Shown: positions 27,319 through 29,655 of the stretch, piece after piece | Layout: each line of letters starts with the position of its first letter | How positions within the stretch are numbered: position 1 is the first letter of the stretch | Virus genome (UHGV): UHGV-0210057 | Source of the DNA: a virus | Length of the DNA: 39,294 nucleotides | Strand: one strand, 5' to 3' | Position numbers and translations under genes: made by a program | Notes under the pieces: model-generated | What the model was told of the DNA's origin: nothing | The model's database searches: none | What the model saw: the letters and a program-made list of their open reading frames with translations, nothing else

Positions 27319-29655
27319 ATGTCAGATATCACCGCAAATGTTGTGGTCAGCATGCCTTCGCAACTCTTCACTATGGCTCGTTCTTTTAAAGCCGTAGCCA
27401 ATGGCAAAATTTATATCGGTAAAATTGACACTGACCCTGTAAATCCTGAAAACCAGATTCAGGTTTATGTGGAGAACGAAGATGGCTCTCACGTTCCTGT
27501 TTCGCAACCAATCATCATTAACGCTGCTGGTTATCCTGTATATAACGGAAAGATTGCCAAGTTCGTAACTGTGCAAGGCCACTCTATGGCTGTTTATGAT
27601 GCATATGGTGCGCAGCAGTTCTATTTTCCGAATGTTCTGAAGTATGATCCTGATCAGTTTTCCTTGTGGGCAAAGGGAAATTTCGAAATATCAGAATACA
27701 GTCGAATAATTGATGGCGATTTTGCGTCTGGATATACTATTACCAATAGAAAACAGGTCCTTAAATACACTGATGGACTTTATTACCAATGGCTTGGTTC
27801 CCTTCCGAAAACTGTAGCGCCAACAGAAAATCCAAATCTTAATAGTCAATGGTTATGCGTCATGGATGGTTCTAATTTCAATGATGCGATCATGTGCAGT
27901 CGCTACATTCAGAGCGGAGTTGACTGCGCATCGGTAATAAATAAATTACAAATATTATCAGAATATAAAAGGGTTCCTCTAGATTTTAGAGGTATAGATG
28001 TGATCTCGTTTAGTGGTAGTGTGCAAATTGGCGACTGGTTTCATTGGATTGGTGCAGGGAAGTCAAGTACTACTATCAGACCAATCTCACTAACAAAGCA
28101 AGACGTTGAGAATAATGGCTTTGGCTATTACTCTTGGTTCATCCGTAAGAACCCTGACAAGGATCTATATTTTGCGATGCTGCAGGATATTTGTTTTGAT
28201 GGACAATACCAAGACGGTTACGAAATAAATAACATTGCGCCGCAGAAGATTATTCGCGCATTCTGCTGGCATTTCAATAACGGTGCCATTGGTCGCAATA
28301 TTACTGCTTTAAGATGTCATTTCAAAAACTGCCCACATGAAGCATGGGAAGGATACACAACTAATGGTGGAATGATTGATGGTATTAATTATTTGTATTG
28401 TTCATCAGAGGGAACAGACCCAATGCTTACCGCTGTTGGATTCAATGCATTTAAGTGTATGAATGGCTCAATTGATTCACCTGGCGCATACGGTACATAT
28501 ACCATTAAAAACATCTTCAGTTTCGGCAACACTGCTTTCGGCCATCGTACATTGAATGACTTTAAGAGAGGTTGCGAAAATTGGGTTATCGATGCATGCC
28601 AAACATTCGACATGAACGATTGCCATCACTCTACGGATGGTTCACGCCGTGGTGTATTCCTTGCTGGCAATATCGGAATTCAAACAGGAAAATCAAAAGC
28701 AACTAAAAATTTTCTTGAAATTCAAGGAGAGAATATTGATGTTCTTGGTGGAAAGTATGTTGCTGCAGCAACCAGTGTGGCTGGCTTGGCTGGTATATTC
28801 GTGACTAATTACTCGTATCCTTCTGAGTCTACAGACTTCCAATCACAGCACATTCGAATTAAAAATGTCTATGTCGAAAGGGTAAACAATAATGCGGTAC
28901 GCATTGTCAATGGGTATGACATCAACGTTGAAGATATCACGGCTGTTAGCTGTAACGGTGTTGGTGTATCATTCGAATTTGTGCCTGGACTAATTAGCGG
29001 AATTGACAATCAAGAGATAAAACCAAGATTTAACTCTGTAGGTAAGATCATAACTAGTTCGTGTTCAGGTGAAGTGTTTGTAGCCAATAACCAAGACGTA
29101 TTTATCACTGCCAATAGCCAGAATACAGGCGGTGGTTTTCGTGTTGGAAGAAGTGATGCTGTCCATAGTACTAACCCTCTACCGATGCGTTCCATAGCTG
29201 GTCATATTCTAGCTAATCAGGATAGATTTTTTCAGTCTGTTATATCTATTGCGCCAGAGAAAACAGATGCAACTACAAAGCCTGTAGGTACGCCTTATGC
29301 ATTCACTCTTAACGATAAGAATACCGCATCAGTACAGAGTTTATTAGTGGCAACACTTCGAGTAGCTCAACGAAGTGCTGTCTATGTAAGACTATGGACG
29401 TTATCAGAAACATCAATATCATCGGCGGTCATTTTTCGCGAATTGGATTCTACAGGTAATTCGTTATCTAATACTGCAATAAAATTATTATCTGATAATT
29501 CGTGGCTTGAGCGTCAGGCAATATATCATGTTAAAAGATCAGAATGTGTAGCTGTAGAGGTTTTTCTTGCTCCTGCTTGTGATGAACGCATGGATATTTC
29601 CTTGACAGGAACAACTAGTTTTGCTGATGTTAGAGTAAGTAATTATCCAATCTGA
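27319..29655 (+). CDS. Tailspike protein: conserved P22-type head-binding N-terminus with a divergent receptor-binding body
   Basis: 778 aa; first about 110 aa closely match the P22 tailspike N-terminus ([10 protein letters not shown]......[35 protein letters not shown]...QP.IINAAG); the remainder is AT-rich and not recognised. Confidence 0.9.

Follow-up and report, generated by a model that had tools for sequence, protein, structure and literature searches.

The gene described here encodes the tailspike that determines the host range of a temperate E. coli phage of HK620/Sf6 type (Lederbergvirus). In it, a conserved virion-anchor domain is joined to a body from an uncharacterised, shuffled family with distant homology to the helices of AlgE-type epimerases and lyases. 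The explanation that best accounts for the evidence as a whole, and that we consider probable, is a tailspike that depolymerises one specific O-antigen, encoded beside an acetyltransferase that modifies the same receptor. The window analysed is the whole stretch of 39,294 nt (UHGV virus genome UHGV-0210057); its relevant features are collected in Table 1.

Table 1. Features of the tailspike gene and its surroundings (window positions; residue numbers are those of the tailspike).
Feature	Position	Strand	Basis or remark
Tailspike ORF	27319..29655	+	ATG start, 778 aa plus stop; ORF list
Head-binding (virion-attachment) domain, residues 1-113	27319..27657	+	PF09008, PDB matches, HK620 identity
Recombination junction and neck, about residues 115-134	27660..27720	+	P22-like spike similarity stops, body-homologue similarity starts
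TSP-N type small beta domain, residues 130-172	27706..27834	+	PF18668 Tail_spike_N, family profiles, model
Right-handed parallel beta-helix body, residues ~190-640, putatively glycan-binding and cleaving	27886..29238	+	Predicted model
Tyr391	28489..28491	+	Invariant, 57/57 family members
Motif 1, R410-T-L-x-D414-x-K416-R417-G418	28546..28572	+	Strand 411-416 of the model
Motif 2, D431-M-x-D434-C-H436-H437-S438-x-D440-G441	28609..28641	+	Strand 437-443, one coil past motif 1
Motif 3, N464-F-x-E467-x-Q469-G-E471	28708..28731	+	Strand 464-471, coil after motif 2
C-terminal beta-sandwich, residues 641-778, carbohydrate-binding-module-like	29239..29652	+	Predicted model
Bidirectional intrinsic terminator hairpin between the convergent tailspike and acyltransferase genes	29653..29682	.	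AAAAGGCGAGCCCACGCCCGCCTTTTT
Integral-membrane acyltransferase, Oac/OacB-like, putative O-antigen O-acetyltransferase for lysogenic conversion	29715..30893	-	PF01757, phrog_3333, Sf101 OacB
Integrase	31208..32401	-	Pfam integrase domains; argW-type site in lysogens

Virion anchor, junction and exchanged body

The limits and length of the ORF are exactly those given by the first-pass annotation; a GGAG lies 9 nt 5′ of the ATG. Identical and near-identical database proteins are named only "phage head-binding domain-containing protein", the sole name in P0001, the identical match, which has 78 members. The P22-tailspike-like character noticed earlier for residues 1 to about 110 is borne out. PF09008 (Head_binding) covers residues 1-113 end to end (1-113/113; E 2.7e-66 in Pfam); the solved N-termini of the Sf6 gp14, P22 and HK620 tailspikes match among PDB sequences with E values of 1.8e-64 to 1.8e-44; and residues 1-114 are 95.7% identical to HK620 and 91.2% to Sf6. 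By this homology, the domain would be the part that fixes the spike, presumably a trimer, to the tail hub, which is its role in P22, Sf6 and HK620.

The surrounding genome is P22-like, with structural genes 96-97% identical to those of HK620/Sf6 and a gene order (ejection proteins of gp7/gp20/gp16 type, the mnt/arc gene mnt, tailspike, an oac-like gene, int) as in Sf6 and Sf101. In lysogens, the integrase is followed by tRNA-Arg, yfdC and mlaA. PADLOC returned no match for the reverse-strand morons and a lipoprotein-like ORF, and promoter-like patterns were at chance level (19 matches; 17.9 expected).

Megablast matches in more than 1100 E. coli genomes end at nt 341-356 of the gene, and body homologues begin to align at residue 134/135; the CUS-3 record annotates a "boundary sequence" at the corresponding stretch, where our model has two helices of low confidence (111-121 and 124-127). 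The exchanged unit begins at about residues 115-134 and takes in the TSP-N domain. PF18668 (Tail_spike_N) is detected in the single sequence (E 9e-6; 26.1 bits against a cut-off of 25), and family profiles match the TSP-N of CBA120 TSP1/3/4, G7C gp63.1 and others with E values of 1e-9 to 1e-17; the domain has a pLDDT of about 82. The tailspike thus has a TSP-N domain (PF18668) ahead of its helix, a Kuttervirus/G7C-type feature.

All that follows from about residues 115-134 is a receptor module acquired by horizontal exchange, predicted to consist of the TSP-N domain, a beta-helix of about 450 residues and a CBM-like sandwich. A fold prediction, proposed in the first-pass annotation as a check, gave an AF2 model with a pLDDT of 84.8 overall and above 90 for residues 190-778; it contains the central right-handed parallel beta-helix of P22-like tailspikes, and its top Foldseek matches are CBA120 tailspikes. 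The C-terminal domain resembles CBMs and the C-terminus of CBA120 TSP4. The earlier statement that the body is unlike the P22 endorhamnosidase therefore holds for the sequence but not for the architecture, which is the usual beta-helix followed by a C-terminal lectin-like sandwich. Similarity to the catalytic bodies of P22, Sf6 and HK620 (helix, catalytic Asp/Glu pairs) was not found, the match to Sf6 being to the N-cap, short of the catalytic coils.

Single-protein searches found no match for residues 173-778 in Pfam, NCBIfam or PDB sequences, and those of PHROGs likewise reached only the N-terminal domains. Profiles of close homologues (A1, A2) still gave no match to the body in PDB, with none beyond residue ~215; the wider A3 profile alone reached AlgE4 and AlgE6, mainly via the N-cap. 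These results support the first-pass picture of a conserved head-binding domain fused to an exchanged, unrecognised receptor-binding or enzymatic body. Full-length high identity to a characterised tailspike, which would have contradicted it, was looked for and not found: over the body, the closest phage proteins reach 47-52% identity, and they are uncharacterised.

The body was also correctly described as AT-rich: its G+C is 0.37-0.40, whereas the head-binding part has 0.424, the structural genes have 0.492 and the window as a whole has 0.464; GC3 compares as 0.31 vs 0.44. "Cys-rich" is true mildly, with 16 Cys (2.1%) overall, none of them in residues 1-115 and 13 (2.9%) in residues 191-640; family-conserved Cys include C361, C427, C435 and C545.

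The body family comprises about 68 clusters at 50% identity, none characterised, and the literature yielded no paper characterising the spikes of ZL19, TR3, VIPECLMC06 or HHH. Its members come from phages of Enterobacter, E. coli, Xenorhabdus and Vibrio, including Kayfunavirus, Drexlerviridae and a prophage with T7_gp14-like internal proteins, and the body is joined to at least five virion anchors: T7-tail (PF03906), tail-collar (PF12571), head-binding (PF09008), endosialidase-N and Mtd_N.

Conserved residues and possible cleavage chemistry

Conservation was counted by column in alignment A3, which holds 57 family sequences down to about 19% identity. In motif 1, R417 and G418 are present in all 57, R410 and D414 in 56 and K416 in 55; in motif 2, D434, S438 and D440 are found in all 57, with C435 in 43, H436 in 44 and H437 in 41; motif 3 has E467 in 55, Q469 in 56 and E471 in 49. 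The motifs lie in the model on the stacked strand series 411-416, 437-443, 464-471 and 491-495, outward or inward facing being deduced from strand parity. Near-invariant residues of four to five consecutive coils (Y391; R410/D414/K416/R417; D434/H436/S438/D440; E467/Q469/E471; Y498) would line a groove of one beta-sheet that holds the O-antigen chain of E. coli of a rare O48-related serogroup; the spike may cut this chain endolytically, letting the virion reach the outer membrane. Hydrolysis of acid/base type, with the invariant carboxylates D434/D440 acting together with E467/E471 from the adjacent coil, seems slightly likelier than beta-elimination, at roughly even chances.

Beta-elimination, by a polysaccharide lyase directed at the same O-antigen, is a possibility that we hold more tentatively. 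It would take place at a uronic acid and be metal- or Arg/Lys-assisted, with R410, K416, R417 and Y391 as base and neutraliser and D414, D434, D440 and E467 holding Ca2+, as in PL1, PL6, PL9 and the Ca2+-dependent AlgE enzymes. Within the conserved stripe there are indeed three basic residues that are invariant or nearly so, and also a Tyr. The beta-helix also shares both fold and profile-level homology with the AlgE A-module (hmmsearch E 8e-22 and 1e-18; hhalign 99.0% over 309 columns), and the nearest structural relatives of the body are epimerases and lyases rather than hydrolases, many capsule depolymerases being among them. One argument against a lyase is that the sequence-level homology to AlgE resides in the N-terminal cap (PF12708), which also occurs in hydrolases, among them Sf6 TSP, GH28, GH55, GH82 and GH110; another is that characterised O-antigen tailspikes are mostly hydrolases.

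The catalytic residues of AlgE (Y149/D152/H154/D178; PMC7385640) are not kept: they align, with low confidence, to the non-conserved E341/E344/Y346, and no other register was found; the YGFDPH motif itself was confirmed in 9 of 11 retrieved AlgE A-modules. The K5 lyase KflA (K5A, K1-5) and the Klebsiella K1 lyase (NTUH-K2044-K1-1) show no profile similarity to the tailspike (hhalign <1%), and no counterparts were matched for Tyr311/His373/Arg397, the catalytic residues of the latter (PMC8822698). Alignment by hhalign to the K1 lyase, K5 lyase and Sf6 TSP was of no use over the catalytic coils. D434-C-H436 was considered as the "D-P/T-H" motif of AlgE and the K1 lyase, and rejected: hhalign puts the AlgE motif elsewhere, sub-segment alignment probabilities are 1-2%, and H436 is not invariant, being Ala or Asp in 11 of the 57 members.

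It is very improbable that the spike does not depolymerise its receptor at all, whether by only binding it, by acting as an esterase or deacetylase (S438, H436, D434/D440), or as an AlgE-like epimerase. For an esterase, S438, D434 and D440 are invariant and H436/H437 frequent, and a phage carrying an acetyltransferase could plausibly meet acetylated receptors; the replacements of H436, however, argue against a universal Ser-His-Asp triad, and the known deacetylating spikes are, to our knowledge, of SGNH or alpha/beta fold and not beta-helices. The closest fold is that of an epimerase, but the AlgE catalytic motif is absent. As for binding alone, the non-enzymatic beta-helix relatives PfbA and NosD score as high as enzymes in structure comparison, although about 12 strongly conserved polar residues on one face are better suited to catalysis.

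O-antigen association and the neighbouring acyltransferase

The body is carried by 2 of 5426 complete E. coli genomes, 18KM2445 (99.6%) and 2017.17.01CC (gene P0013, 54% aa identity). An O48-related O-antigen cluster is present in three of the 5426, and both carriers are among these three; the chance of 2/2 carriers falling in this set is about 2e-7. The two prophages differ in kind and site, which together with the 54% identity of their spikes excludes shared clonal descent of the prophage; the O-clusters of the strains differ by about 1%. The body probably targets one rare O48-related O-antigen type, an assignment drawn from just these two lysogens, which carry the modified receptor. In declining to name a glycan by eye, the first-pass annotation showed a restraint that these results uphold.

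An extra SDR epimerase gene, TviC-like (E 7.5e-35), lies between ugd and wzzB in the lysogen, whose O-cluster also includes an ATP-grasp-like gene. We take these to be features that accompany GalA or amino-acid-amidated uronic acids, and to that extent they favour a lyase. NCBIfam gave neither the epimerase next to ugd nor wzx and wzy a specific name, so a uronic acid is no more than a candidate component of the target O-antigen, which counts on the other side.

Another surface glycan (group 1/4 capsule, colanic acid, ECA or exopolysaccharide) is an unlikely target; the O-cluster link would then be a lineage effect. Such a target would fit the occurrence of capsule-specific spikes in P22-like phages, such as the CUS-3 endosialidase, and the many capsule depolymerases among the structural relatives; the Enterobacter and Vibrio homologues may be capsule-directed, and the number of E. 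coli lysogens behind the O-antigen link is small. A lineage effect, however, is hard to reconcile with two distinct prophages at different sites bearing such divergent spikes, in strains whose O-clusters are so similar, and the neighbouring gene specifies a membrane acyltransferase of Oac/OacB type, the phage-borne relatives of which acetylate O-antigen. As it stems from the N-terminal 115 residues only, the PHROG label "colanic acid degradation" was dropped. ZL19, which carries a body homologue, was isolated on the O-antigen-less strain BL21, so the spike is not always required.

The acyltransferase matches PF01757 (Acyl_transf_3; E 1e-28) and the O-acetyltransferase family phrog_3333 (E 5e-53), and shares 40% identity with Sf101 OacB across 95% of its length; like Oac and OacB, it is a phage-borne integral-membrane Acyl_transf_3 protein encoded beside the tailspike and int genes. 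Among the 5426 genomes it co-occurs only with this tailspike. Both E. coli spikes, in their different prophages, are followed by a convergent Acyl_transf_3 gene; with only 28% identity between the two acyltransferases, joint inheritance of acyltransferase and body in a single cassette is excluded. If the O-antigen is the receptor, as we favour, the OacB-like enzyme would O-acetylate it in lysogens, so that the phage's own and related spikes would stop recognising it.

The hairpin that follows the tailspike stop codon escaped a consensus terminator scan; it was spotted by eye and confirmed by folding: its RNA has a predicted stability of -15.1 kcal/mol (+) and -17.9 kcal/mol (-), with z of -5.3 and -5.1, and none of 200 shuffles was as stable. 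Sf6 has an annotated terminator at the equivalent place.

Significance and comparison with known systems

This is an ordinary kind of phage host-range module, of which the specificity is the unstudied part, and it leaves the current understanding of how such spikes work unchanged. Tailspike bodies decide the serotype range of phages; they are also employed in serotyping, as anti-virulence enzymes and in phage engineering, where they are swapped in as modules. From the present body one would gain a candidate reagent for a rare O48-related O-type of E. coli, together with one more case in which a spike goes with an acetyltransferase that alters the receptor of that spike. The family signature, over its clusters from Enterobacter, Xenorhabdus and Vibrio phages, describes a family that current domain libraries miss. 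It is conceivable, if rather doubtful, that these are glycan-processing beta-helices made from an AlgE-type scaffold with a relocated active site of different composition (RTLxDxKRG, DMxDCHHSxDG, NFxExQGE), perhaps a new lyase or hydrolase family for uronic-acid, possibly amino-acid-amidated, O-antigens, which recurs with receptor-masking acetyltransferases across unrelated phages.

Among known systems, the HK620 and Sf6 tailspikes share with this one the head-binding domain, genome type, locus and plan of anchor, neck, right-handed beta-helix and C-terminal domain; Sf6 shares in addition a convergent O-antigen acetylase gene and terminator directly 3′ of the tailspike. Beyond residue 115 or so, the only sequence similarity to them is a weak one to Sf6 in the N-cap (hhalign 78%); they also lack the extra TSP-N domain found here and have other conserved residues. 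The Sf101 OacB and Sf6 Oac proteins share the Acyl_transf_3 fold of the neighbouring gene product and its position and orientation between tailspike and int, while the window acyltransferase is divergent in sequence and very low in G+C (0.316).

The A-modules of the Azotobacter mannuronan C5-epimerases AlgE4 and AlgE6 have significant remote homology to the tailspike helix, which differs in about 60 extra residues in the coils of the catalytic region. No Pfam domain of the C-terminal Ca2+-binding R-module type was found in the tailspike, a phage virion protein that ends instead in the CBM-like, lectin-like sandwich. In structure, the top Foldseek matches are TSP4, TSP2 and TSP3 of CBA120 (Kuttervirus; 5w6h, E 1.3e-13), which have the PF18668 TSP-N domain in common with this tailspike but differ from it in virion anchor, in helix sequence (10-14% identity) and in their unrelated O-antigen specificities.

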